From Rhodobacterales bacterium (GTDB lineage Bacteria; Pseudomonadota; Alphaproteobacteria; Rhodobacterales; CAZPXZ01), in assembly GCA_965222665.1 (NCBI GenBank), contig CBDCUM010000010.1:1640853-1704852 (forward strand): DNA of 64,000 nt, given 5' to 3'. Position 1 is the stretch's first letter. Every line of letters begins with the position of its first letter. The position numbers and the translations under genes were made by a program. Of this stretch, positions 1,760 through 53,993 are shown one piece after another. The notes below the pieces were generated by a model. It was not told the origin of the DNA, did no database searches, and was given only the letters and a program-made list of their open reading frames with translations.

Positions 1760-3666
1760 GCCCCGGAGACCTCCGGATGGACCGACGGTACCAGCCCCTT
1801 GCGGATCCAGCGATAGAGCGTTGTTCCCGTCACACCGAGTTCGGCGGCGGCTTCAGATACGCTCAGAGCCGGCACCCCGGAGGCATCCGCCTCCGACGGC
1901 GGGCAGACGGCAATGCCATGGCGGCCCCGCAACGCGGCAACCCGGGATGCCGTGTACGGCAACCCCCGGGCCGTCACGCGCTTCTGACGATTGAGAATCC
2001 GGGCGATCTCCCCATCCGGATAGAATGCCGCCAGCCGGCGCAGGAGGTCCACCGTGTCCGCATCGTCGCGCTTGATCTCCCGATGTCCAGTGAGGATCGG
2101 CAGTTGGTGTTGATCGCTCCGCCCGCCCTTCCATTGCAAGACCACACTGATCTGCATGGCATTCCGGTCGATGTTCAGGATCACTTCATCAAGCAGGCAG
2201 GAGAGCAGACGCTTGCGGTCCCGCGCCGTTGTCCCCTCAGCCTCCCACAGCGCCGGAAGATCCCGGCCGAGAGACGCAAGCCGTTGAGGGTCCGGCGCCC
2301 GGGGCTGTTCGGCCTCGGCCACCTCAAGCTGCTGTTGCGCGCGCTCCAGCGCCCGCAACGCCTGTTCCCACTCCCCTTCCAGCGTCGCCGCAATCAGGCG
2401 GTTGTCGGGATCAACCTGCCGATAACGGCGCGCCGCAAGAGACGCTTCGTAGGTGCACCGCTCCAACTCAAGGCGATAACTACGCTGCGCCGTCTCCCTC
2501 TCAACGACCAGCTGCTGCTCGGCCTGCAGTGCCGCCTCCAATCCTGCCGGGCCCACCGCCTCCAGAAAGCACTGCGAGACCAATCGGTCAATGCGAACGC
2601 CTCCGACCGAAAAACAGCCGTCGTGGCTGCCAAGGGTGTTCATGCGCCCCGAGCAGAGATAACGCCAGGACTTGTTGTACCGGCTGCTCATCGAGCGGCC
2701 GCAGTGGCCACACACCGCCAGACCCTGCAGCAACGCTGGGCCTTCGCGCAACGCACCACGGTCCGAAGCCCGCTTCCCCTGGTTGCGGAACAGCTGTTCC
2801 TGGATCCGGTACCAGCTCGGCAGATCCACATACGCCTCATGATGGTCCGGGATCCACACCCTCCATTGCTCGCAAATCGGCCCGTCCACCGGCCCGCCCT
2901 GGCGGGCCCAGGCATAGACGCCGGCCATCATCGGGTTCTTCAGAACCGCCTGAATACGGCCGTAGTCCGCATCCCGCCAACTCACCTGACCATGTCTGCA
3001 AACCGGAAAACGCACCCCCGAACCGCGAAGAAGTTGCGCCGCCGCACGGGCCGAACCAGCCTCGAGAAAGGCACGGAACACACCCTCGATCGACGCCTGG
3101 ACCTGCTGGTCCGGATCCTTCGACAGCCGCTCCCCGTTCAGCACATACCCGGCAGGAAGATGGCTGTACAAAGCCCCGCGCATCGCCTTGTTGCGCTTGC
3201 CGCCCTCCAGGCGAGCCTTGATGATCGACAACTCCGAGGCGGAAATTGTACCCTTAATTCCGAGCACCAGGTCGTCGTCGTTGCGACCCGGAGCATAGAC
3301 ATGACTGTCCTCGACGATCACCGTGTTGCTCCGGCGGCACAGATCCAGAAGTTGAAACCATTCCACCGTGTTCCTCGCCAAGCGCGACACCTCAATCCCG
3401 AACACCGCACCCACTTCGCTCACGGCAATCTGCCGGCACAGCTGGTCAAACCCCCGACGCCGCCCAGCAACCGCGCCGCTCATCCCGAGGTCGCCATCGA
3501 TCGTCTCGACGCGACCCTCGGGCCAGCCAAACTCCCGCGCACGCTCCACCAGCGCATACTGACGCTCGGTCGATTCCCGGTGGTTCCGCACCTGCCCCGG
3601 ACTCGACTGGCGCACATACACGATCGCAAGACGCGACAGCTGCTCAGCCGTGATCCGGTCCGTCAC
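1760..3666 (-). CDS. Large serine recombinase (resolvase, recombinase, Zn-ribbon, C-terminal HTH); C-terminus disrupted by the IS at 1759
   Basis: AIVYVRQSS catalytic motif, SRLARN, CGHCG zinc ribbon, AAELGVTGTTLYRWIRKG HTH; the ORF runs on into the IS end. Confidence 0.9.
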
Positions 3667-3847
3667 CGTCCCGCTCCCGAACCGCCAGATGGACCATCAA
3701 TCTCGCCAGCTCCGCCACAAACTCTCTGCGCGCATCCTCCGGGATCGCTTCCCATCGATGCTGGCGATCCTGCCATTCCAGCAGGCTGAACAGCGTGTGT
3801 TCCTGATCCGCGTCCATCCGCCTCTCGTCGCTCCAACGCACCAACAA
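3644..3847 (-). CDS. Small hypothetical protein overlapping the recombinase start
   Basis: WEAIPEDARREFVAELARLM; position typical of small ORFs upstream of y4bA-like recombinases. Confidence 0.5.
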   Translation of the reverse strand: MLVRWSDERRMDADQEHTLFSLLEWQDRQHRWEAIPEDARREFVAELARLMVHLAVRERDGDGPDHG

Positions 3848-4065
3848 GTTCAGCCAATGCTACAAAATCCGACAACCAGCCATATAGTGCAACCTCGCAA
3901 GGCATGCTCGCCTCAAGGCTCGTCCAGCGGGCAGGAATCCACCGCCGCCGACCGTCCGCAAATTCAGCCTCCACGATCAGCCGGCCCGATCCTTCCCGGC
4001 GACGGCGGTTGCCAATCCTGATCGTCTGACCGTCGAAAGGGTGCCCGCGGCGGCAGAGAACAATC
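3663..4065 (-). CDS. DUF5372/y4bD-like small accessory protein, start and stop uncertain
   Basis: The frame of ORF 3663..3974 extends upstream as RRGHPFDGQT...WIPARWTSL (HPFxG and PxxWT motifs). Confidence 0.5.
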
Positions 4066-34226: not shown

Positions 34227-35277
34227 CCATGCGCCGCGCCGCCTGACGGCGCCATGAACCTTCCGGGCATCCGGACCCCCCGTTTGACCGAGCGCCGTCT
34301 ACGACCGCCCTGATTCCGGGGAATCACGGAGCTGGAATCATGGACCTGGCGACAGTTCCAGCAACATTGACCGGGCAGGGCAAGAATACTTGTTAGCATG
34401 AATCTCCTCGCGCATCGATCCAAGCGAAAGAGTCCAGCCTCTTTCAACCCGCCCGGGTACCTTCACACCACAATGCGAAGACCCGATTGAGAGCCTGTAA
34501 CTATTTGAGCAGCCAACCGACGCGAGGACTTTCGGCATCACGGCGCAGCCCATCGGTCCATTTCTGGACACATTCCCGTTCGAATGGGCTGCGGTGGATC
34601 CAAGGTGGCGGTGTAGACATCATTTGCCGACAGCCGCGACTGCCTGGCACGGCCTGCATCCCGCAGTCCAACGCGCACCGGACAAAGGAATCGCAGAATC
34701 GCGACCTCGAAACGGGGTTCGTCCGGGCTCGCGCTGTCGCGGATGCCCGCCAAATCGGATCAGGCGATTGCGTCCGGCAGTTGGGCCCGCGACCTCGCCA
34801 AACGCCACCGCACGTTCGATTTCGGGATATCGTAGCCAGGCAGAGCAATGCAGTTCCCGGTGCAGTCGACTGCCGGATCCGGCGGATATACGAACACGTA
34901 GCGCAACTCCATCCGATTGCCGATCCCCAGTCAGCCTGGATGAAGCCAAGCGTGATGATGCCGGCGGTCGTTTTCTCCAACACCGGCGTCCTGCCTGTGC
35001 CGACGGCCACCGCTGCCGGCGTTGTAACCGTCTTCGGGAAGCTCGCGCCTGGCGCTGCCGCAACCTCCCTTTGGGGTGGTTGACGTTCTGTCAGGTTCAG
35101 ACATCTGCGTCCAGGAAACCCTCGCGGTAAATTGCCTCGATTCGCGTGACTTCCTCATCAGTAACTACTCACTCCCTCCTGCGTCTGGCTTGAGTTCGGG
35201 GTGACTGTCGACGAGCCTCCCGGGAGGTGATTGAGCGGGGTGGTGTCTGGTTGCGGATCGCTGAAGGCGACGGGAGG

Positions 35278-35306
35278 TTGACACTCCAGCGAAATCTGAC
35301 TATGAG
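35278..35306 (+). promoter_or_regulatory. Putative sigma70 promoter for the MTase-transposase operon
   Basis: TTGACA-17 bp-TATGAG; similar in copy B (TTGACA at 47511, TAAGAG). Confidence 0.5.
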
Positions 35307-35334
35307 TGGTCATCGCTGTTGACGGGGACCACCG

Positions 35335-35994
35335 ATGGGGTGTTTCGGATCCAAGGCGACGACCGGGCTTTGTCAGGCGCTACTGGGGCTCCAGCCTCCC
35401 CACGATCTGTATATAGAGACGCATCTCGGAGGCGGTGCCCTGATGCGGCGCAAGGCCCCGGCGATGCGCAGCATCGGGATTGACCGCGATCAACGCGCGC
35501 TTGACGGGTTCAGGTGCGACTACCCGGTGGAGCTGGTACAGGGCTGTGCCCACGAGTTCCTGGCCAGCTTCCCGTTGCGGGGTACGGAACTGGTCTACAG
35601 CGATCCGCCGTATCTGCATGCGACCCGTCGGTCGGACCGGCGGTACCGCTACGAGTATACGGATGCCGACCACGCAACCCTTCTTGATCTGCTCACGGGC
35701 CTGCCGTGCCAGGTGATGGTTTCGGGACACCCCTCGGCGCTGTATGACGAGATGCTGTCGGACTGGCGCCGGGTCGCACTACAGGTGACCACCCAGGCCC
35801 AGGTCCGCACCGAGGTGGTCTGGTTCAACTTCACGCCCGAGCGGATGCACTGGGCCAGCCATGCCGGCCGGAACGCCACCGACCGTCAGCGCATCAAGCG
35901 CAAGGCGACCCGCTGGGCACAAGGCTACAAGAACCTGCCGGCGGGTGAACGTCTCGCGGTGATCTCGGCGATCATGGCGGTCGAGGCCGAGTGA
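35335..35994 (+). CDS. DNA adenine methyltransferase (small Dam/D12-like)
   Basis: FGSK, ETHLGGGA (motif I), IGID, VYSDPPY, VMVSG. Confidence 0.88.
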   Translation: MGCFGSKATTGLCQALLGLQPPHDLYIETHLGGGALMRRKAPAMRSIGIDRDQRALDGFRCDYPVELVQGCAHEFLASFPLRGTELVYSDPPYLHATRRSDRRYRYEYTDADHATLLDLLTGLPCQVMVSGHPSALYDEMLSDWRRVALQVTTQAQVRTEVVWFNFTPERMHWASHAGRNATDRQRIKRKATRWAQGYKNLPAGERLAVISAIMAVEAE

Positions 35995-37460
35995 TGGCGC
36001 GGATCAACCCGGCCTCGCTGCGCGCGCAGCTGGACGACTGCCGAGCCCGGTTCGATGCCATCAAGCAGAAGGGCGAGGCAAGCGCGGACACCCTCGCGCT
36101 GATCAATGCCCTGTTCATGCTGGTGGATATCGTGGTGGCGGTGTTCCTCGAGAAGACAACACCAAAGACCTCGCGCAACTCCAGTCTGCCGAGTTCACGG
36201 GACGGCACCGACAGCGAGACCCACACCGCGGGCAGGTCCGGATCCCGGAGCCGCGGACCGAAGGCACGCCACGCACGCTCCGACACCCTGCGCACGGTCA
36301 CCACGACGCACACCAGCCCGGTCACCGAGTGCCGGCAGTGTGGCCACGACTTGACCGGGACCGCGTGCACCGGACACGAGCAGCGCATCGAGGTCGACAT
36401 CGTCTTCGAGACCGTCGAACGTCGGGTCACCGCCGAGATCAAGGCCTGTCCGCGCTGCCAATCCCGGACCAAGGGCCGCTTCCCCGACACCATGCCCGGT
36501 CCTCTGCAGTACGGACCCGGGATCGTCGCCTATGTCGTGCACCTGCTCTGTGCCCAGATGGTCCCGCTCAAGCGGACGGCGGCCATGATCCAGGCGATGA
36601 CCGGACGGCTGCTCTCCGAGGCCACCCTGCTCGCCTTCGTCTGGCGCCTGCATCAGGCCCTGGAATCCTGGGAAGCTGCCGCCATCGACAAGCTCCTTGA
36701 CATGCCGGTGCTGCATGTCGACGAAACCTCGTTGCGCGTGGACCGCAAAAACTACTGGATCCATGTCTGTGCCGGCGGGCCCATCACCGTCAAGGGCCTG
36801 CACCGGAACCGCGGCTGTGAGGCGATCAACACCCTCGGGATCATCCCCCGATACGGGGGCCTCATCGTCCATGACTGCTGGAAACCCTATTTCACCTACA
36901 CCCAGTGCAAGCATCAACTCTGCGGCGCGCACCTGCTCAGGGAACTTCAGGCCGTGACCGACAGCAACGGCTATCCGTGGGCACGCAAAATGCACAAGCT
37001 GCTCCTCATCGCACGGCGACAGGTCATCCAACGCCCGCAACAGCGGCTGTCCATGCGCCACTACAAGCGCATCGCACGATGCTACAAGGCGATCCTCGAG
37101 CAGGGACGCACAGAGATGCCCGAAATCCCACCGCCAAAAAAAGGCCAACGCGGACCGGTCGCCAAGTCCGACGCCCATAACCTCCACCAACGCCTCGTCG
37201 TCCAGAGAAAAAACGTCCTGCGCTTTACCAGACGCGCCGACACTCCGTTCACAAATAATCGTGGCGAGCGCGACATACGTATGGCCAAGGTCAAGCAGAA
37301 GGTCTCCGGGTGCTTCCGAACCGTATCCTTCGCACACGCCTACTGTCGAATCTCGAGCTACCTCCAGACCATGGCGGCACTCGGATACAACCCCCTGGTC
37401 GCCATCAACATCGCCCTGCAGGGAAAGGCCGTCCACTGCCTCAACCAGGACACCGAATAG
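35991..37460 (+). CDS. IS66-family transposase
   Basis: SRNSSLPSS, CRQCG and CPRC zinc finger, HVDET, VHDCW, QLCGAHLLREL, TNNRGERDIR..KVKQKVSG. Confidence 0.95.
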   Translation: MMARINPASLRAQLDDCRARFDAIKQKGEASADTLALINALFMLVDIVVAVFLEKTTPKTSRNSSLPSSRDGTDSETHTAGRSGSRSRGPKARHARSDTLRTVTTTHTSPVTECRQCGHDLTGTACTGHEQRIEVDIVFETVERRVTAEIKACPRCQSRTKGRFPDTMPGPLQYGPGIVAYVVHLLCAQMVPLKRTAAMIQAMTGRLLSEATLLAFVWRLHQALESWEAAAIDKLLDMPVLHVDETSLRVDRKNYWIHVCAGGPITVKGLHRNRGCEAINTLGIIPRYGGLIVHDCWKPYFTYTQCKHQLCGAHLLRELQAVTDSNGYPWARKMHKLLLIARRQVIQRPQQRLSMRHYKRIARCYKAILEQGRTEMPEIPPPKKGQRGPVAKSDAHNLHQRLVVQRKNVLRFTRRADTPFTNNRGERDIRMAKVKQKVSGCFRTVSFAHAYCRISSYLQTMAALGYNPLVAINIALQGKAVHCLNQDTE

Positions 37461-39441
37461 CCACTCGAACCACCGGGTGAGCAGTTACCCTCATCATTCA
37501 GTTCCGCGAACTCCCTTTTCCGGCCGCGGCGCGACAGCTTGCCTCCGTTGTTGTGCAGGAACCGGAACAATAGATCGCACAGCCTCTCCGGCATATCGAC
37601 CATCAGGCTCAGCTCCGCACGGAACCGGTCATAGCGCCGCAGGAATGCGGATTCCTCAGGCAGGTCGCGTTCGACAGTGTGCTGGACGCATCCATAGAGA
37701 AACTCGGTTTGCGGTGTCGCGTCAAAGAACCGGTAGAGGTCTCCGGTATCGTTCTGCACGCGGACATTGCCGTTATCGGTCGGTTCCCAATCCACCACGG
37801 GCAGCAGTCGCCGCGAATAGTCTTCGAGTACAGCGCGATAGTCGTCAATCCGTTCCAGAATTGCCGACGATACGGGGAAGACGACACCTGGTGGATTGAA
37901 GCCTCGCCTGGCAAGGACATGGTGAATGAGGTAGCGGTGAAGCCTGCCATTGCCGTCCTCGAACGGGTGGGTATTGACCAAGCCAAAGGCGAGAGTCGAA
38001 GCTGCCACAACCGGGTCAAGTTGCGGAGCTGTCCGCTTGTCAAACGAAATCATGCCCTTCACCAGCCCTGCCAAGTCGTCAGGCCGAGCGCTGATATGGA
38101 CCGGAATCGGCATGCGAGTTTGGCGATCCCTTTCGCCAACGAAACCGCCCTCCGTGCGTAGACCGAGGCGCACGAAGCGGGCATCACCAATCATGATACG
38201 CTGCAGGCGCAACAATTCGTCGAGATCGATGGGCGGTTGACCTGCCAGTCCGATGGCTCGGCCCCATCGTTGGATTCTGTCCTGCGGCGGATGCTCGCCT
38301 TCGATGGCAAAGCTCGACCTCGAATCCTTGTGCAGCAGGACGATTGCTGTCCGCACCAACAGGTCTCTCGGGATTGCACCACTCGTTTCCTGCGCGCGCG
38401 CCTGCAAGTCCATCGCAACAAATCGCTCCATCGCATCAGTGCGAAAGACCAGCGGACAGAATTCTGGCGTACCCGGCAGGTTGTTCTTCACTCGGTGCCG
38501 CGGCGAGACTTCCGGGCGGGCTGCAAACTGGCGGTCCGGATCAAGGACGGTCGGATAGGCTCCGCGATCAGCATTCGGAAGATTAAGCCGCCGTCCGGCC
38601 AACCACTCATAGAGAAACCAGATACGCCTGGCACAGGCGCCCGTCGGCTTGGCCTTGACGAGTTCTTCGATCGGTGCGGATCCGGTCGCGAGAAACAGGC
38701 ACTTGAGGATCGCGAGATCGAGCCCCTCATACTTCAGGGCGAAGGTGAGGTGGGCCTCAAGACTGCCGCTGGGCGCATGTCGAGGCGAATTGATCCGCCA
38801 GCCGTGTTCCTCAAGCAGCTTGTGCCGTTCCCTTGTAGCGCACAGGATACGCGGTAGTGGCGCACGCAGCCCGTACGCGTCGATCAACGCAGCGTATCCG
38901 GACGGAGTGGCGGACACCGGCAGCCTTCGTTCCTGAAAAACGGTAACAGGCCCTGAAAAAAAACGATTCCGGTCAGGGATGTTCGTATCTGAACCTCTTA
39001 CTCGACTGACGCATCGCGAACGTTGCGGCATATCCATGAAAAAGAGTACTTCGGCGCGAATAGCGATAACGCTATCCCTCTTTGATGAAAAGCGATAACT
39101 GTCGGAGGCCCCAAGCGATCGAACTGCCAGGAAGGAGAATGCGTTTTCCTCTAGCGGCAGCGACGGTTGGCTGGTCTGTGCAAGAGCTCGCCGCCAATGC
39201 CGGATTCCTGACTACGGTGGTTTGATCCAGATATTTCTCGGGGGCGCGGGATATCGAAGTGCTTGACGGTGAACTTGTACAATCGACATTTGGGTCCTGA
39301 GTTTCAATTCAACTCGTGTGACTCCGGACGGCGTGAAGTGTCATCAATAGGATTCTTGTATGTTCGTCAATGTATTACACCACGCTGCGTTGCCAATCGT
39401 AGCCCACGGACATCGTCAAGTCCGATGTATTTGCCGTAAGT

Positions 39442-45963: not shown

Positions 45964-47567
45964 GTCCCGGACCCCGATCCGTCCCTGTAGCCACCCTCGC
46001 CGACGCTGCGGGAGACGATCAGCCCGGCGGTCCAGCGCGCCCCGGTCCAATCGGTGCCGAGCATGCCGGTCACGACCTCGCCGTCCAGCGTGAGCTCGCC
46101 CTCGCGGCCGTCGAAGCGCGTGACCGCGCCCCGGCCCCAGAGGGAGACCAGGTCCTCGCCGACCGTCTCCGCCGTGAGCGCGAAAGCGGAGCCGGTCAGC
46201 AGGCCGCGGTGCGTCATCGCGCGGGACTGGCGCTGCGCCTCCTCCGGGTCGGTCTCGCCCCGCAGCCAGTCGGCGAGCCGCAATGCATCGCCCCGCGTCT
46301 CCTCTTCCCGCCGTGCGTCCCGTTCCCCCTCGCTGCCAGGCTCGGAGCTTCCGCCGATCCGCTCGCCGGCGAGCGCAACCTCGACCCCGGGCTTGAGAGT
46401 CGCGCGCATCCGCCCCTCGATCGCCTCGAGCGCCTGTTCGGCCACGGTGCGCCCGAAGCGCGCGATCCACGCCTTCGGGGTCAATTCGACTTCGCGGATC
46501 GTGCCGGTTCCCTCGGCGTCGACGATCACCGCCTCCGCTGCGTTGGACAGCACCAGTGTCATCGTCTCGCGGCCTTCGTTGTGGCTGTCCGCCAGCACCG
46601 GGACTTCGACCGTCTTCAGCTTGTCGCCGGACGCGAAGGTCAGCGTGCCGCTCGTCGCGGTATAGTCGTCCCCGGCCTGTGCGGTGCCGTCGCGCGTCTC
46701 ATACCGCACCGTCACCGTCACCGTCACGTTCTCGGTGTAGGCCGGCTCCAGCACCACCTCGAAGACCAGCGGAGACGGCGTGCCGGGCGCGGTCGGCTCC
46801 TGCACCGAGGCGTCCTGCACGCTGAGCGAGGGCGGCGCCGCCATGGCGGTGTCGGTGCCTACGGCGATGCCGCTGCTAAACCCACCGGTGCCGCTCCCGG
46901 TCACGGTGAGGGTAAAGGTAAGCAGGGTGTTGTTCTGCGGCAGCGCCGAGATCGTCACCACCGTCGTGGCGCTCGCGGCGTCTTCAAACGTCACTGTCAC
47001 CCCGCTCGGCGCATTGGTCAGCGCCCAGGAGTAGGTCACATTCTTGCGCCACGGCCCGCCGCTGCCGCTTCCGTCGAGCGTCACCCTGCCCCCGGCGCTC
47101 GAAACCGCTCCGCCATCCGGCAGGGCCACCGCCGCCGGTGCGAAGGGCGCCCCCGGATTGCCCGCCAATTTCAGCGTCGTCAGCGAGATCAGCGGCTGGA
47201 GCACGTCGTCGGGAAGCGTAGTCAGACCGTTGTCTTGCAGTTCCAACTGTTTCAGAGCGGTCAGCCCGTCGAACACCCCGGGGGAAAGCGTGGTCAGACC
47301 GTTGTTGTACAGAATCAGCTTCGTCAGCGAAGTCAACCCGTCGAACACCCCGGCGGGAAGCTCGGTCAGACCGTTGTCGCGGAGTTCCAGCCGCGTAACT
47401 ACTCAATCCCTCCTGCGTATGGTTTGAGGTCGGTGTGCCTGTTGACGAGCCTCCCGGGAGGTGATTGAGCGGGTGGTGTCTGGTTGCGGATCGCTGATGG
47501 CGACGTGAGGTTGACACTCTAGCGAGATCTGACTAAGAGTGGTCATCGCTGTCGACGGGGACCACTG

Positions 47568-48227
47568 ATGGGGTATTTCGGATCCAAGGCCACGACCGGG
47601 CTCTGCCAGGCGCTACTGGGGCTCCAGCCTCCCCACGATCTGTATGTCGAGACGCATCTCGGAGGCGGTGCCCTGATGCGGCGCAAGGCCCCGGCGATGC
47701 GCAGCATCGGAATTGACCGCGATCAACGCGCGCTTGACGGGTTCCGATGCGACTACCCGGTGGAACTGGTGCATGGCTGTGCCCACGAGTTCCTGGCCCG
47801 CTTCCCGTTCCGCGGTACGGAACTGGTCTACAGCGATCCGCCGTATCTGCATGCGACCCGTCGGTCGGACCGACGGTACCGCTACGAGTATACCGATGCC
47901 GACCACGCAACCCTTCTCGAGCTGCTCACGGGCCTGCCGTGCCAAGTGATGGTCTCGGGACACCCCTCGGCGCTGTATGACGAGATGCTGTCGGACTGGC
48001 GCCGGGTCGCTCTGCAGGTGACGACCCAGGCCCAGGTCCGCACCGAGGTGGCCTGGTTCAACTTCACGCCCGAGCGGATGCACTGGGCCAGCCATGCCGG
48101 CCGGAACGCCACCGACCGTCAGCGCATCAAGCGCAAGGCCACCCGCTGGGCACAGGGCTACAAGAACCTGCCGGCGGGTGAACGTCTCGCGGTGATCTCG
48201 GCGATCATGGCGGTCGAGGCCGAGTGA
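47568..48227 (+). CDS. DNA adenine methyltransferase (copy B)
   Basis: Near-identical to 35335..35994; DPPY intact. Confidence 0.88.
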   Translation: MGYFGSKATTGLCQALLGLQPPHDLYVETHLGGGALMRRKAPAMRSIGIDRDQRALDGFRCDYPVELVHGCAHEFLARFPFRGTELVYSDPPYLHATRRSDRRYRYEYTDADHATLLELLTGLPCQVMVSGHPSALYDEMLSDWRRVALQVTTQAQVRTEVAWFNFTPERMHWASHAGRNATDRQRIKRKATRWAQGYKNLPAGERLAVISAIMAVEAE

Positions 48228-48598
48228 TGGCGCGGATCAACCAGGCCTCGCTGCGCGTGCAGCTGGACGAATGCCGAGCCCAGTTCGATGCCATCAAGCA
48301 GAAGGGCGAGGCAAGCGCGGACACCCTCGCGCTGATCAATGCCCTGTTCATGCTGGTGGATATCCTGGTGGCGGTGTTCCTTGAGAAGACAACACCAAAG
48401 ACCTCGCGCAACTCCAGTCTGCCGAGTTCACGGGACGGCACCGACGAAGGCGAGACCCACACCGCGGGCAGGTCCGGGAGCCGCGGACCGAAGGCACGCC
48501 ACGCACGCTCCGACACCCTGCGCACGGTCACCACGACGCACACCAGCCCGGTCACCGAGTGCCGGCAGTGCGGCCACGACCTGACCGGGACCGCGTGC

Positions 48599-50937
48599 CT
48601 TTCATTTAGACACAGTTAACACGGTTGTTCGATTGGCGCATATTCCGGGCATGCAAATCGGGCTTCGACATTTCCGTTCCGCGACGATCGACTGGCTGAT
48701 CGGTGCGGTTGCGGCAGAGGGTGGCACGCGCCATGGGCTTGCGCGCGAGCTTTGCGAACGGGAGAACTGGCGCAATCCGCGGGGCGTTGCGTGTCTGGCG
48801 CAGGCGAGCAAGGCGCTGCCGCGGCTGGCGGCCCGGCTGAACCTGTCGTTGCCCGCGGCGCGGCCGATGCCGTCGCTACCGGTTGCCGCGGAGAGGGCGT
48901 TCCCGGACCTGACGCTGACCTGCCGGCTTGCGGAGCTCGGCGTGGTGACGCTGGAGCCTGTCGGCGACGCCGACCGCGGTCTGTGGCGGGCGATGATGGC
49001 GAGCCATCATCCCGAGGGAAGTTCGCGAATGCCGGGTGCCCAGCTTCGCCATTGGGTCCGGTCTTCGGTTCACGGCAGGCTTGGCGGGATCGGGTTCTGT
49101 GCCGCAAGCTGGCACCAGAAGGCGCGCGATGCGTTCCTTGGCTGGTCGCCCGACGCACGGGTTGCGAATCTCGGGCTTGTAGTCAATAACGACCGTTATC
49201 TTCTGTTGCCCGGGGTACGGGTCGACAACCTGGCGTCGCATGTGCTGGCGCTGGCGGCGGCCCGCGTTGCGGACGACTGGGAAGCAGCGTATGGGGTAAG
49301 GCCGTTGGCGGCCTATACCTACGTGGCTCCCGACCGGCTCGGAACCTGCTACCGGGCCGCAGGCTGGAAGTGTTGTGCGGCGCGAACCTCGGGATGTCCG
49401 CCCGGGCGGCGCGCGGTCGCGCCGAAAGCGGTATGGATCAAGCCGTTGGCCGCGGGATGGCGCGAGAGATTGTGCCAGGAACCACACCGCAGGCTTGGCG
49501 CGGCACCGACGCCGCATGTGCCGAAGGATACGGACTGGGCCGATATCGAGTACCGGCGCGGCAGCCATCCCGACGGCCGCCTGCGTGACCGGGTGGTGGC
49601 GATGGGCCGGGCGTGGGAACATGCCCCGGGTGCGTCGCTGCCGGCGATCTTCCCCGGCGCGGCGGAACAAAAGGCCGCCTATCGGCTGCTCTCGAACGAC
49701 AGGATCAAGATGGAGCATATTCTTCAACCCCATCAAGAGGCTACGGTCGACCGCTGCCGGCTGGAACCGGTGGTTCTCGCGCTCCAGGACACAACGACCC
49801 TCAACTACAACGGCCACCAGAAGACGGCGGGTCTGGTCAATCTCGGCGGCGGCGGATCGGGAACCTGGGGCTTGCTCGCCCATGTCGGGCTTGCAGTCAC
49901 CGAAGCCCGACGCCCGCTCGGAGTGTTCGAAATCAACGCGACACAGCGCGACGGCACGCTGGCCGCCGAAACGCCGGACAACGTGCCGGAAAGCGTGCGC
50001 TGGCTGCGCGGCCTTGAGCGCGCCGGGCAGATCGCGGCAGCCTGTCCCGACAGCCGCGTGATTACGGTCTGTGATCGCGAAGGAGACATATGGGACCTGT
50101 TGCAAACGGCACGGCAGACCGGCAACGGGCTCGTGGTGCGTTCCGACCGCGGCCGCCAGCGCCGGGTCGCCGTCGACGGCGGCACCCGTGAGTTGTGGGA
50201 CTTCATGGATGGGCAACCGGTTCTGGGCACAAAGACCATCACCATCAGCCCCTATGGTGGTCCCCGCAAGCGCCGCGAACGCAAGGCCCGGCTTGAACTC
50301 CGTGCCGCGATGGTCGACCTCGTTCCACCGTCGAACAGGGCCGGCGACGAAGCACCGCTCGCCATGCTTGCCGTCTCGGTCCTCGAACCCGAACCGCCGA
50401 AAGGCAAGATGCCGCTCCACTGGGTGCTCCTCACCACCGAGGGCGAGGCCGAAATCGACAATGCCCGGCGCGTCGTCGCATGGTACGAAGCACGCTGGAC
50501 CATCGAGGAATACTTCCGGATCCTCAAGGTCGGCACTCGGGTCGAGGATCGCAAACTCGATCACGCCGACGATCTGCGCAAGTGCCTCGCATTCGATGCC
50601 GTGACCGCATGGCGTGTCATGGACCTGGAACGACGCGCCCGCGACACGCCAGACATGCAGGCACTCAAAATGTTCTCCGAACACGAGATCAACGTGCTCT
50701 ACGTCTGGCTCAAACACCGCCGTGTCATTCGCGCTCCACCCGAAACGCCCCCGGATATCCGAACCTTCGTGGTCGACCTCGCTCGCCTCGCCGGATTCCG
50801 TCCCAGCAAGCGGCAACCGCTCCCCGGAACCGAAAAAATCTGGCAGGCATGGAGAAGCTACAAGGAAGGTCTCGATGCCGTCAATGCATGGGAGAAACGA
50901 TCAGACGATAACCGTGTCAACAGTGGGTAGTTGAAAG
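48599..50937 (+). mobile_element. Complete DUF4338-IS50-like element (copy 5)
   Basis: TIRs CTTTCATTTAGACACAGTTAACACGGTT and AACCGTGTCAACAGTGGGTAGTTGAAAG; 9-bp TSD ACCGCGTGC, single in the empty site at 36360-36368. Confidence 0.96.
48651..50930 (+). CDS. DUF4338/DruA-like domain fused to IS50-type transposase
   Basis: MQIG start at 48651 matches the paralogues; DDE motifs intact. Confidence 0.93.
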   Translation: MQIGLRHFRSATIDWLIGAVAAEGGTRHGLARELCERENWRNPRGVACLAQASKALPRLAARLNLSLPAARPMPSLPVAAERAFPDLTLTCRLAELGVVTLEPVGDADRGLWRAMMASHHPEGSSRMPGAQLRHWVRSSVHGRLGGIGFCAASWHQKARDAFLGWSPDARVANLGLVVNNDRYLLLPGVRVDNLASHVLALAAARVADDWEAAYGVRPLAAYTYVAPDRLGTCYRAAGWKCCAARTSGCPPGRRAVAPKAVWIKPLAAGWRERLCQEPHRRLGAAPTPHVPKDTDWADIEYRRGSHPDGRLRDRVVAMGRAWEHAPGASLPAIFPGAAEQKAAYRLLSNDRIKMEHILQPHQEATVDRCRLEPVVLALQDTTTLNYNGHQKTAGLVNLGGGGSGTWGLLAHVGLAVTEARRPLGVFEINATQRDGTLAAETPDNVPESVRWLRGLERAGQIAAACPDSRVITVCDREGDIWDLLQTARQTGNGLVVRSDRGRQRRVAVDGGTRELWDFMDGQPVLGTKTITISPYGGPRKRRERKARLELRAAMVDLVPPSNRAGDEAPLAMLAVSVLEPEPPKGKMPLHWVLLTTEGEAEIDNARRVVAWYEARWTIEEYFRILKVGTRVEDRKLDHADDLRKCLAFDAVTAWRVMDLERRARDTPDMQALKMFSEHEINVLYVWLKHRRVIRAPPETPPDIRTFVVDLARLAGFRPSKRQPLPGTEKIWQAWRSYKEGLDAVNAWEKRSDDNRVNSG

Positions 50938-51259
50938 ACCGCGTGCACCGGACACGAGCAGCGCATCGAGGTCGACATCGTCTTCGAGACCGTCGAACGT
51001 CGGGTCACCGCCGAGATCAAGGCCTGTCCGCGCTGCCACACCCGGACCAAGGGCCGTTTCCCCGACACCATGCCCGGTCCTCTGCAGTACGGACCCGGGA
51101 TCGTCGCCTATGTCGTGCACCTGCTCTGTGCCCAGATGGTCCCGCTCAAGCGGACTGCGGCCATGATCCAGGCGATGACCGGACGGCTGCTCTCCGAGGC
51201 CACCCTGCTCGCCTTCGTCTGGCGCCTGCATCAGGCCCTGGAATGCTTGTATGACGAGA

Positions 51260-51580
51260 CACAGCAAGAAGAGAGGAAAGAGTTATCAACAACTCCTTCC
51301 CGGCGGCCTGGCGGGGGAAAACGTGTTTACGAGGGCTCTTCGCTGTTGGCTGCGCGGGTTTTTGCTTATCCTCTTGCTTGAGTTTCCGGGTCCGCTTGCG
51401 CTGACTGAGCGCGGTGGACCGGAAAGCGCGGAGCGACGGCTTTGCGCGAAGGTGGGCCGGACCGTGGAATCCTTGGAACAGTACCGTTTCCCAGCTTGGT
51501 CGACCCACCTTCCTTTGTTCCCGGCGTCCTGGATGGGATGCAAGGGTTGGACCCGTATCATCGCAAGATTAGGAGCGAGG
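51260..51580 (+). ncRNA. Putative bridge RNA (boundaries approximate)
   Basis: Stem AAGGTGGG/CCCACCTT encloses TGGAATCCT (51465-51473) and TTCCCAG (51488-51494), matching both strands of the target; a second loop has donor-like segments. Confidence 0.75.
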
Positions 51581-51585
51581 GAACG

Positions 51586-52536
51586 ATGACGACTACAGTA
51601 GTTGCTGGCCTCGATGTTGGCAAGGATGAGGTTCACGTGCATGCGAATGGGCTGGGGCGCAGTTACGCCAATGTTCCCGCGGGCTTCCGCGGCTTGCGGA
51701 ACTGGCTGTCGCAACAGGGCGTCCAGCGTGTGGTGATGGAGCCGACGGGCCGCTATCACCGGCGCGTCCACCAATCCCTGGCGGCGGCCGGATTTGAGGT
51801 TGTGGTGATCAATCCCCTGCGCAGCCGGCGCTTCGGCGAGTCGCTGTTCGGACCGGCGAAGACGGACCGGATTGACGCGGCGATGCTGTCCCGGCTCGGG
51901 GCCGCGATGCCGGATCTGAGGGTCGCAAAGCCCAGAGATGGCTATGAGGAAGAGCTTGAGGGGCTTCTGGTTGCTCGCAGCTGCCTTGTCGATGTTCGGA
52001 CCAAAGTGAAGCAGACCGCCGACGAGGTGAGCGGCCGCGGCGAGAAGCATCTGCGAAAGGTGGGTGCCACGACCGACAAGCGCATCGCGGATCTGGATGC
52101 GGCGATCCTCGCGCATATCCAGTCGGACCCGGAATGGGCCAGGCGCTATGGAATCTTGTTGTCGATCCCAGGCATCGGGCCTGTCAACGCGGCCCAGCTT
52201 CTCTGCTGGATGCCGGAACTTGGCTCCATCCGGAACCGCCAGGCCGCCAGCCTGCTGGGGGTGGCGCCGTTCGACAAGGACAGCGGCAAGAGCCGAGGCG
52301 CCCGCCATATTGCCGGAGGCCGGCGTCGTCCGCGCGATGGCATGTACATGGCGGCGACATGCGCCGCCATCCACAACCCGGATATGAAAATCGTCTCGGA
52401 TCGCCTGAAGGGGGCCGGCAAGAAGCACAAGGTTGTCATCGTCGCCATCATGCGGAAGCTCGTGATTCTGGCCAATGTGCTTCTCCGGGATGGACGCCAC
52501 TGGACGCCGGAAGCCTCTGCATCAGCCCGAGGATAA
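51586..52536 (+). CDS. IS110-family DEDD recombinase
   Basis: GLDVGK, VMEPTG, AKTDRIDA, SIPGIGP, DSG; purine-rich RBS before ATG 51586. Confidence 0.95.
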   Translation: MTTTVVAGLDVGKDEVHVHANGLGRSYANVPAGFRGLRNWLSQQGVQRVVMEPTGRYHRRVHQSLAAAGFEVVVINPLRSRRFGESLFGPAKTDRIDAAMLSRLGAAMPDLRVAKPRDGYEEELEGLLVARSCLVDVRTKVKQTADEVSGRGEKHLRKVGATTDKRIADLDAAILAHIQSDPEWARRYGILLSIPGIGPVNAAQLLCWMPELGSIRNRQAASLLGVAPFDKDSGKSRGARHIAGGRRRPRDGMYMAATCAAIHNPDMKIVSDRLKGAGKKHKVVIVAIMRKLVILANVLLRDGRHWTPEASASARG

Positions 52537-53446
52537 GTCGTGGAAAAGCTGTGGAAAACACGGGAGGGGCGCATGCCCGGAAGCACCAAAGGGGCCTGAA
52601 TCGGGCTTGACTGCAAACATAGATGCTGGGAAGCTGCCGCCATCGACAAGCTCCTTGACATGCTGGTGCTGCATGTCGACGAAACCTCGTTGCGCGTGGA
52701 CCGGAAAAACTACTGGATCCATGTCTGTGCCGGCGGGCCCATCACCGTCAAGGGCCTGCACCGGAACCGCGGCTGTGAGGCGATCAACTCCCTCGGGATC
52801 ATCCCCCGATACCGGGGCCTCATCGTCCATGACTGCTGGAAAGCCTATCTCACCTACACCCAGTGCAAGCATCAACTCTGCGGCGCGCACCTGCTCCGGG
52901 AACTTCAGGCCGTGACCGACAGCAACGGCTATCCGTGGGCACGCAAAATGCACAAGCGGCTGCTCATCGCACGGCGACAGGTCATCCAACGCCCGCAACA
53001 GCGGCTGTCCATGCGACACTACAAGCGCATCGCACGATGCTACAAGGCGATCCTCGAGCAGGGACGCTCGGAGATGCCCGAAATCCCGCCGCCAAAAAAG
53101 GGCCAACGCGGTCCGGTCGCCAAGTCCGACGCCCATAACCTCCACCAACGCCTCGTCGTCCAGAGAAAGAACGTCCTGCACTTTACCAGGCGCGCCGACA
53201 CTCCGTTCACAAACAATCGTAGCGAGCGCGACATACGCATGGCCAAGGTCAAGCAGAAGGTCTCCGGGTGCTTCCGAACCGTATCCTTCGCACACGCCTA
53301 CTGTCGAATCTCGAGCTACCTCCAGACCATGGCGGCACTCGGATACAACCCCCTGGTCGCCATCACCATCGCCCTGCAGGGAAAGGCCGTCCACTGCCTC
53401 AACCAGGACACCGAATAACCACTCAAACCACCGGGTGAGCAGTTAC

Positions 53447-53993
53447 CCTGAAAGGATTGATCGGAGACAGAATCCCGGAAAACATCATTGTCGCCAACTG
53501 GCCTGACATCCTTCGTAGCGCGGCTACGATGGCTGCCGGTGTCATGCGCCCCAGCCAACTCCTCCGGAAGTTCGCCGCCTATCCGCGGCGGCACGATCTG
53601 GCGACCGCACTTCGAGAAATCGGCCGAATTGAGCGAACATTGTTCATCATGGACTGGCTGCTTGACGTCGACATGCAACGCCAGGCGCAAGTCGGGCTGA
53701 ACAAGGGAGAGGCACACCACGCCCTGAAAAATGCCCTTCGGATCGGTCGTCAGGGTGAAATCCGTGACCGGACAAGCGAGGGCCAGCACTTTCGGATCGC
53801 TGAGCTCAACCTTCTCGCAGCAATCATCATCTATTGGAACACCGAACACCTCGGTCGCGCCCTACTACAGCGGAGGCGAGCCAGCATTGCTACTCCCGAA
53901 CAACTCCTGGCACACATCTCACCCCTCGGATGGGCGCATATCCTTCTCACGGGGGAATACCGATGGCGAAAGATACCGACCAAACGCCCTTAG
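53447..53993 (+). pseudogene. Tn3-family transposase C-terminal fragment
   Basis: LREIGRIERTLF, LNKGEAHHAL, IIYWNT, HISPLGWAHILLTGEYRW. Confidence 0.92.

Follow-up and report, generated by a model that had tools for sequence, protein, structure and literature searches.

The window analyzed here is a 64,000-nucleotide (nt) stretch from the 8.85-Mb genome (12 contigs) of a Rhodobacterales bacterium (contig C10, positions 1640853–1704852; other contigs are denoted likewise). It contains a 1380-nt insertion sequence (IS) of the IS110 group, copy c1, on the plus strand at 51248–52627. This element interrupts the transposase gene of an IS66-family element, and two strings in its left non-coding end match the two halves of the same site in an unoccupied IS66 copy of the window. 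We put at roughly 85% the probability that c1 is an IS110-group IS, probably still functional, whose left end encodes a bridge RNA that selects the target, as in IS621. The guides of closely related copies in the genome differ from those of c1, and guide columns track the copies' own flanks.

Guide strings in the left end of c1 and their IS66 target

The ends of c1 (TGTATG...GATGCT) were defined by aligning its junctions with the empty IS66 copy A, and a genome search found them to be common to four full copies and three fragments; the right terminus at 52627 reads ...ATAGATGCT. The core dinucleotide CT is present once per junction, at 51246–51247 (just outside the element) on the left and at 52626–52627 on the right, and is also found in the empty target site. 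When joined, the ends of c1 provide the donor sequences ATAGATG-CT (right) and CT-TGTATG (left). The left end (LE, 51248–51585, plus strand) is 338 nt long and consists of about 175 nt of extra 5′ hairpins followed by about 160 nt of bridge RNA, close to the initial annotation's left end of about 340 nt with additional hairpins; its fold z-score is −3.5 relative to 100 shuffles. The right end (RE, 52537–52627, plus strand) comprises 91 nt and terminates in ATAGATG-CT. This layout, with the LE much longer than the RE and the RNA 5′ of the gene, is that of the IS110 group. The intervening recombinase gene (51586–52536, plus strand) encodes 316 amino acids (aa) with the Pfam domains DEDD_Tnp_IS110 (PF01548, 7.8e-20) and Transposase_20 (PF02371, 2.9e-15), and the protein matched the PDB entries of ISCro4 (9t56, E 2.9e-26) and IS621 (8wt6, E 5.3e-24). 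Residues D10, E52, D94, D97 and S233 sit in conserved motifs and are found in c1, c2 and c3; the open reading frame (ORF) of c1 is intact with the full catalytic residue set.

RNAalifold was run on nine left ends, four from the family of c1 (family a) and five from a second IS110 family of the same genome (family b, described below). It predicted a 5′ hairpin followed by two stem-loops with internal loops. The 5′ stem-loop (51426–51447, plus strand) has 9 bp, and all nine pairs display changes on both sides among the 33 distinct rows aligned to the covariance model described below. The target-binding stem-loop (51448–51512, plus strand), predicted by RNAalifold and the covariance model, consists of an outer stem, an internal loop and a short inner hairpin. 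Its stem strands are AAGGTGGG (51449–51456) and CCCACCTT (51504–51511), and one outer-stem pair is U-A in family a and C-G in family b. The two strands of the internal loop (51465–51473 and 51486–51496) coincide exactly with the two target guide strings. On the 5′ strand, the left target guide plus core, UGGAAUC-CU (51465–51473, plus strand; TGGAATCCT), is identical at 9/9 positions to nucleotides 36661–36669 of IS66 copy A. On the 3′ strand, the right target guide plus core, GUUUCCC-AG (51486–51494, plus strand; GTTTCCCAG), forms eight Watson-Crick pairs and one G-U pair with CT-GGGAAGC. The strand polarity is that described for IS621, where, according to the account of the loops in PMC11208160, the 5′ strand has the top-strand sequence and the 3′ strand is its complement. 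Two nucleotides, CU (51495–51496, plus strand), lie immediately 3′ of the right target guide and were assigned as a putative handshake dinucleotide by analogy with positions 81–82 of IS621, as numbered in the relevant part of PMC11208158; its C would pair with donor G7 and not with target C7.

The donor-binding stem-loop (51518–51583, plus strand) was recovered by the same two methods. GATGC (51537–51541) and CAAG (51564–51567) bracket a GGGTT..ACCC hairpin in it. The register of the loop was fixed by family b, in which the donor loop AUGGAUGCU is identical at 9/9 positions to the element's own right end plus core and the right donor guide forms five pairs. In this register the left donor guide of c1 lies at 51534–51542 (UGGGAUGCA, plus strand) and the right donor guide GCAAG at 51563–51567 (plus strand), followed by a putative handshake AU (51568–51569). 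The right donor guide makes four Watson-Crick pairs and one wobble with CT-TGT.

Compensatory changes between families a and b affect 5 of the 49 pairs. We built a covariance model from the RNAalifold alignment and ran it on 77 loci of species genomes with recombinases 30–53% identical. The same fold was found upstream of these distant recombinases at 36 loci (E≤1), 25 of which had E<0.01, and 35 of the 36 matches lie on the coding strand of the gene and end no more than about 100 nt upstream of its start. Changes on both sides were seen in 41/49 pairs of the covariance-model rows. In the matched rows 88.8% of the pairing cells were paired, versus 65.4% after shuffling and 36–49% with slid partners; the rows are fitted to the model, which favors structure, but the margins are large.

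The IS66-family element of copy A (35161–37490, plus strand; 2.33 kb by genome blastn; Pfam DDE_Tnp_IS66, 2.5e-42) contains the perfect unoccupied target TGGAATC-CT-GGGAAGC at 36661–36676 (plus strand), inside the DDE domain of tnpC (35991–37460) and about 15 kb from c1. This exact 16-mer occurs once in the genome. The coordinates and strings given by the initial annotation for this empty site, the stem, the guides and the donor hairpin were all correct to the base, and its proposal that the guides match the IS66 transposase gene is borne out by the loop strands, by 9/9 agreement of each guide (one position being G-U) and by covariation among sister copies. Copy B (47395–53449, plus strand), the copy that c1 occupies, survives as three pieces in genome blastn (47395–48598, 50937–51247 and 52628–53449), being interrupted by c1 and by a 2.3-kb insert at 48599–50936. 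That insert carries a 765-aa ORF with DruA and Tnp_DNA_bind domains and is probably another IS.

Compared with copy A, both junctions of c1 indicate a clean insertion at TGGAATC-CT-GGGAAGC, except that the left junction of copy B reads TGGAATG-CT, with G and not C beside the core, a difference that the initial annotation did not report. We compared this site with the 20 unoccupied IS66 copies that span it. The majority type, TGGAAGA-CT-GGGAGGC (15/20), differs at left-target positions 6–7. Two copies read TG at these positions (TGGAATG-CT-GGGAAGC or TGGAATG-CT-GGGAGGC), and two others have an additional T after the core (TGGAATCCT+T+GGGAAGC) and are frameshifted. A tree built on 1071 nt of flanking sequence places copy B with the two TG copies (support 96/97) and the +T copies in an intermediate position; copy A falls in an unresolved majority clade. 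The G may have been there before insertion, c1 having entered a TG site with a single mismatch at position 7, or it may derive from the donor. The latter would fit the published exchange mechanism, because the donor carries TG at positions 6–7 and these positions beside the core are mismatched after bottom-strand exchange according to the mechanistic sections of PMC13626964 and PMC11208158. IS66 relatives in two other samples have GAAGACTGG or GAACCATGG at the target codon.

Covariation of guides and flanks in two IS110 families

Family a comprises, besides c1, the full copies c2 (C6:448096–449475) and c3 (C7:229754–231133), both 98% identical to c1, and c4 (C11:345408–346772; 96%), as well as three fragments that include c5 and c7. 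When their left ends are aligned, the differences are seen to cluster in the two guide strings. Copy c1 has the left guide UGGAAUC, c2, c3 and fragment c5 share UGAGGAC, and c4 has UGCGGAC, giving three guide types among five copies; the right guide is GUUUCCC in all copies but c4 (GUCUCCG). Copies c1 and c2 differ at 26 of 1380 nt, and four of these differences fall within the seven left-guide positions, for which we estimate a binomial chance of about 2e-6. The four are consecutive, with GAAU in c1 for AGGA. A change on both sides is seen in c4, whose flank TTCGGAC-CT-CGGGGGT fits both of its altered guides, GUCUCCG-AG pairing with CT-CGGGGGT. The recombinase gene of c4 has lost 14 nt and is a pseudogene. 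Fragments c5 and c7 are flanked by GGGGAC-CT and CGGGAC-CT, and the empty paralogues of their sites read AGGGGAC-CT-GGGAAGC or similar. The guide columns of sister copies track their own flanks, and the genome provides a natural covariation test.

Two copies fit less well. At the c2 site, CGGGACC-CT-GGGAGGT, the right half is fully paired if wobble is counted and the left half matches at 3/7 positions; c3 interrupts a unique ORF at TTGGACG-CT-GGTAAAG, where the left guide fits at 2/7. The right half seems to matter most in such copies, and the pattern recalls the "half-match" off-target insertions that are reported for IS621. Recent sister copies of this kind indicate which guide positions tolerate mismatch in nature. 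We initially took the odd base next to the left core of c1, c2 and c3 for an insertion, a reading that was given up. The base of c2 is native because empty paralogues have the same base, and the junction G of c3 is not inserted because without it the flanks would be out of frame (worked by hand from the ORF coordinates). The odd base of c1 fits either a native G or donor-derived positions 6–7.

The flanks of c2, c5 and c7 are three related multicopy families. The c5-type element, about 4.1 kb long, encodes three tandem tyrosine recombinases with a Pfam Phage_integrase match in all three (at C11:2061900–2066300, minus strand, ORFs 687–2090, 1688–2629 and 2626–3882), a layout that we take to be that of a recombinase-in-trio (RIT) element. 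It is present in about 11–13 full copies and in further solo ends, and is the main prey of family a, with the target site about 290 nt from the RIT end. The initial annotation had suggested mapping all copies with respect to the IS66 position. Only c1 is found there; the remaining copies of family a are in RIT elements, in one unique gene and at one repeat boundary. It would have taken insertion mostly at unrelated loci as a sign that the IS66 match is incidental. The copies do sit elsewhere, but their guides differ, which is what guide-directed targeting predicts, and this reading stands unrefuted. The description of an element that homes into another multicopy IS was, however, overstated: c1 occupies only one of the 21 IS66 copies, and 15 of the others have a different sequence at left-target positions 6–7. 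A single copy was retargeted to a minor IS66 subfamily; homing of the family as a whole into IS66 would be too strong a claim. RIT elements are the ancestral prey, from which c1 has been retargeted; the right half of its target, GGGAAGC, is also the right half of the c5-type RIT site, and only the left guide has changed.

Two RIT end fragments (C12:1751700–1755200, at position 247, and C12:1769050–1772500) stop exactly at the core CT, and the sequence beyond it is ordinary chromosomal DNA that carries a solute-binding-protein gene, a pattern suggestive of rearrangement at IS110 sites. A sequence beginning TGAGTGTCGCG after the RIT half-site was considered as a third IS110 and rejected, as it is chromosomal, contains the solute-binding-protein gene and has no match to the covariance model. 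The genome is rich in repeats, including a 2.5-kb element in about 50 copies, about 22 copies of IS66 and a short repeat in about 136. At 8.85 Mb it compares with 2.6–4.7 Mb for five other genomes of the genus, and its contamination estimate is 5.65%.

Family b shares 66% DNA identity with family a, has the same RNA scaffold and is present in about eight copies, including C7:187187–188567, C10:1171561–1172942, C10:1516481–1517862, C12:242847–244229 and C7:160440–161820. Variation among seven aligned left ends was again concentrated in the two guide strings, with five left-guide and four right-guide types. In b2, b3, b4 and b5 the guides agree with the copy's own flank on either side, and in b8 the right guide does so. 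The flanks of b1 and b7 fit their own guide poorly and a sister's guide better, as is expected if the RNAs act in trans. The right end of b1 has one base fewer at the bottom-strand exchange position (GGTG-CT, versus GGATG-CT in the others).

Proposed mechanism and alternative explanations

A promoter for the left-end RNA is predicted only when the element is circular. A −10-like hexamer, TATGAC (51250–51255, plus strand), lies at the start of the LE, and a −35-like hexamer, TTGACT (52607–52612, plus strand), in the RE. At the computed circle junction the two are separated by 17 nt with 9/12 matches (a match to consensus only); no sigma-70-like site was found in linear 51150–52700. Family b, inspected by eye, shares both hexamers and the 17-nt spacing. 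The predicted arrangement agrees with IS621, whose promoter is rebuilt at the circle junction as reported in passages of PMC11208160 and PMC13626964. In a transcript from the c1 junction, about 165 nt of additional 5′ hairpins would precede the bridge RNA. An open frame also runs through the left end (113 codons in c1–c3, 111 in family b; window 51248–51589, plus strand, frame of 51251) and its terminal ATGA overlaps the recombinase start. We rejected it as a gene because the differences between the c1 and c2 LEs show no third-codon-position bias (counted by hand), because c4 has a 1-nt deletion within it and because its putative start codon precedes the point at which the transcript is predicted to begin.

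We propose that the element excises as a circle and that joining of the right and left ends would build the promoter TTGACT, 17 nt, TATGAC, which may drive the left-end RNA and the recombinase. The first loop would then pair with the target, UGGAAUC-CU with the bottom strand and GUUUCCC-AG with the top strand, and the second loop would pair with the joined ends of the element itself, although less perfectly. Strand exchange at the CT core would be carried out by the DEDD/Ser recombinase. The change of GAAU for AGGA in the guide would have moved the best target from AGGGGAC-CT-GGGAAGC near the RIT end to TGGAATC-CT-GGGAAGC in the IS66 transposase gene. The sequences show the anatomy of the element, the matches, the covariation of guides and flanks among copies and the structural covariation; production of the RNA, its binding by the protein and the ensuing recombination are inferred.

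Several results weigh against this proposal. The left donor guide agrees with ATAGATG-CT at only 5/9 positions (6/9 with G-T), with the second core base mismatched, so that the "partly matching" donor loop of the initial annotation was an apt description. The poor left-guide fit of c2 and c3 shows that matching is not strict in family a. A genome scan allowing wobble everywhere returned three zero-mismatch sites for c1, and about 1.2 are expected by chance per guide; such a scan is poorly specific and proves little alone. An Rfam scan of 51100–52800 gave nothing below E=0.3 or near a gathering score, and no bridge-RNA name. The signal in RNA libraries (two metatranscriptome runs) was a single contig of depth 4 covering 51253–51495 with 15 differences, and the same two runs yielded no contig of the recombinase gene; metatranscriptomes may contain DNA, and the left-end contig is no proof of transcription. 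The perfect site exists in copy A only and is empty. Finally, contigs of two other samples that hold the element have the guide UGAGGAC, and the c1-type guide was not seen in them.

Searches for further relatives returned little. The c1 left end was absent from the five other genomes of the same family (six searched, including this one), no match to the recombinase in species genomes exceeded 53% identity, and a metagenome scan with a 30-letter pattern and free guide returned no stretches. An 18-letter stem pattern retrieved 116 metagenome stretches, none of which had the 3′ partner motif or a CT in register, and these were rejected as chance matches in GC-rich DNA.

The alternative that survives best, which we regard as unlikely, is that the bridge RNA is real but the IS66 match is a one-off: c1 would be stranded and drifting, with IS66 not currently targeted. 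The single occupied IS66 copy, the empty perfect site and the absence of the c1 guide from the two other samples all fit this idea, as does the fact that c1 is the most diverged intact copy in the left end, which accounts for 16 of its 26 differences from c2. Drift, however, is not expected to produce a run of four changes that yields a 9/9 match next to a right guide that already fits and has not changed, and the c1 ORF is intact with all catalytic residues. In addition, all six minor-type IS66 copies (TC, TG and TC+T) are either occupied or have variant letters of the kind a past visit would leave.

Much less probable still is that the new guide was copied from its target in a templated event and did not arise by point mutation. 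Four adjacent substitutions at once in a 98%-identical copy would be accounted for in this way, and 12/12 consecutive letters (TGGAATCCTTGG) are common to the left-end DNA and the two +T IS66 copies. The identity beyond the guide is trivial, as the inserted T meets the UGG of the RNA inner stem; the flanking homology is a few bases only, and we know of no mechanism for templated guide copying. Judged by the differences listed for it, the left-end contig of run X19 possibly has an intermediate guide, UGGGAUC, which would favor stepwise change, although at depth 4 this is unreliable. The weakest alternative, that the recombinase reads its sites by protein-DNA contacts, that the left end is a structured leader and that the matches are coincidental, can draw on the few sites per genome that match any guide by chance when wobble is allowed and on the poor fit of c2 and c3, but is close to refuted by guide columns that co-vary with flanks in two IS families, by strings that lie exactly in the loop strands of a fold kept by compensatory changes, and by the homology of the protein to solved RNA-guided recombinases.

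Possible scars at empty sites and comparison with known systems

Unoccupied target sites may bear scars of earlier IS110 visits, a suggestion that we make tentatively and at somewhat less than even odds. Two changes recur at these sites: the donor dinucleotide TG at positions 6–7, and a single nucleotide inserted between core T9 and position 10. The four empty RIT copies of the c2 type differ between −100 and +75 only in that CC is replaced by TG in one and a T follows the core in another. The additional T is also found in 2/17 c5-type RIT copies, in 5/8 c7-type copies (one subfamily) and in 2/20 IS66 copies, where it is the only insertion or deletion within about 97 nt and shifts the transposase frame. 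A G is inserted at the same 9|10 point in a 99%-identical pair of a family-b target. TG at positions 6–7 occurs in 2/20 IS66 copies and in 1/17 members of a diverse family-b target family, of which another comparison showed a second copy with TG; the family-b case is weak, as background variation is high. Altered empty sites are located at C11:14385, C11:~393165, C11:162334, C6:9341, C10:27006 and four other positions, and those in IS66 at C10:~1114650 and C10:~361535.

TG at positions 6–7 is what the donor would leave there, and the 1-nt insertion falls at the top-strand cleavage point. For IS621, PMC13626964 gives AT in the donor and GC in the target at positions 6–7. The identity of the inserted base is not derivable from the mechanism: a T could be the element's first base or a copy of T9, and a G fits neither. 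In the literature on IS110 excision footprints we found no description of such scars by title or abstract; in PMC13626964 the words "scar" and "footprint" do not appear, and in 10.64898/2026.08.14.744561 "footprint" and "scarlessly" appear once each in another sense. If the scars are real, they would be an in vivo record of bottom-strand exchange 4 nt to the left of top-strand exchange, as cryo-electron microscopy implies, and would indicate that double-strand excision or aborted exchange occurs naturally, a point of relevance to the current dispute between cut-out and copy-out transposition. Scarred sites would be poorer targets, amounting to target immunization. Possible scars could be searched for in any genome to date or count past IS110 visits and to test the 4-nt offset in vivo.

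Among known systems, c1 most resembles IS621 of E. coli, also of the IS110 group. Both have a DEDD RuvC-like domain and a Tnp domain with a catalytic Ser. According to the portions of PMC11208160 and PMC11208158 that describe IS621, the two also share a long left end with a 5′ hairpin and two internal-loop stem-loops, guides of 7 nt plus CT, a CT core, a junction promoter (in c1, a predicted one) and targets in repeated DNA. The c1 protein is nonetheless only distantly related (phmmer E 5e-24), its 338-nt left end has about 175 nt of extra 5′ hairpins and its donor loop is imperfect. The targets differ as well, being repetitive extragenic palindromic (REP) sequences for IS621 and mobile elements here (RIT elements and the IS66 gene). 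ISCro4 (9t56) is the best-scoring solved relative (E 2.9e-26) and is likened to c1 by recombinase alignment alone, in which the D of GLDVG, the E of MEPTG, both D of KTDRIDA and the S of DSGKS align with the D, E, D, D and S of c1.

Insertion at one position of a repeated or mobile sequence is shared with other IS110-family elements: in the available descriptions, IS4321 and IS5075 insert in the terminal repeats of Tn21-family transposons, and ISPpu9 and ISPpu10 in REP or repeated intergenic sequences. IS4321 and IS5075, unlike c1, are members of the IS1111 group and have their RNA on the downstream side of the gene, and none of these four is described in those accounts as targeting the inside of a transposase gene. 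Our literature search on IS110 together with IS66 or "recombinase in trio" returned nothing on these targets by title or abstract. Natural reprogramming and the targeting of mobile elements are already known for IS110, and the mechanism is not new; c1 and its sisters do show mobile elements preying on other mobile elements. The nearest precedent for the guide change is ISEc11 and ISXne4, for which the seekRNA sections of Siddiquee et al., 2024 (PMC11187229) describe a conserved RNA scaffold with replaced target-matching segments and redirected insertion. Those are different ISs from different hosts, with transposases 72% identical. The switch described here, in contrast, lies between 98%-identical copies in one genome and involves the left guide only, and c1 would provide a clean natural case in which a change of four letters in one guide moves an element from RIT elements to IS66.

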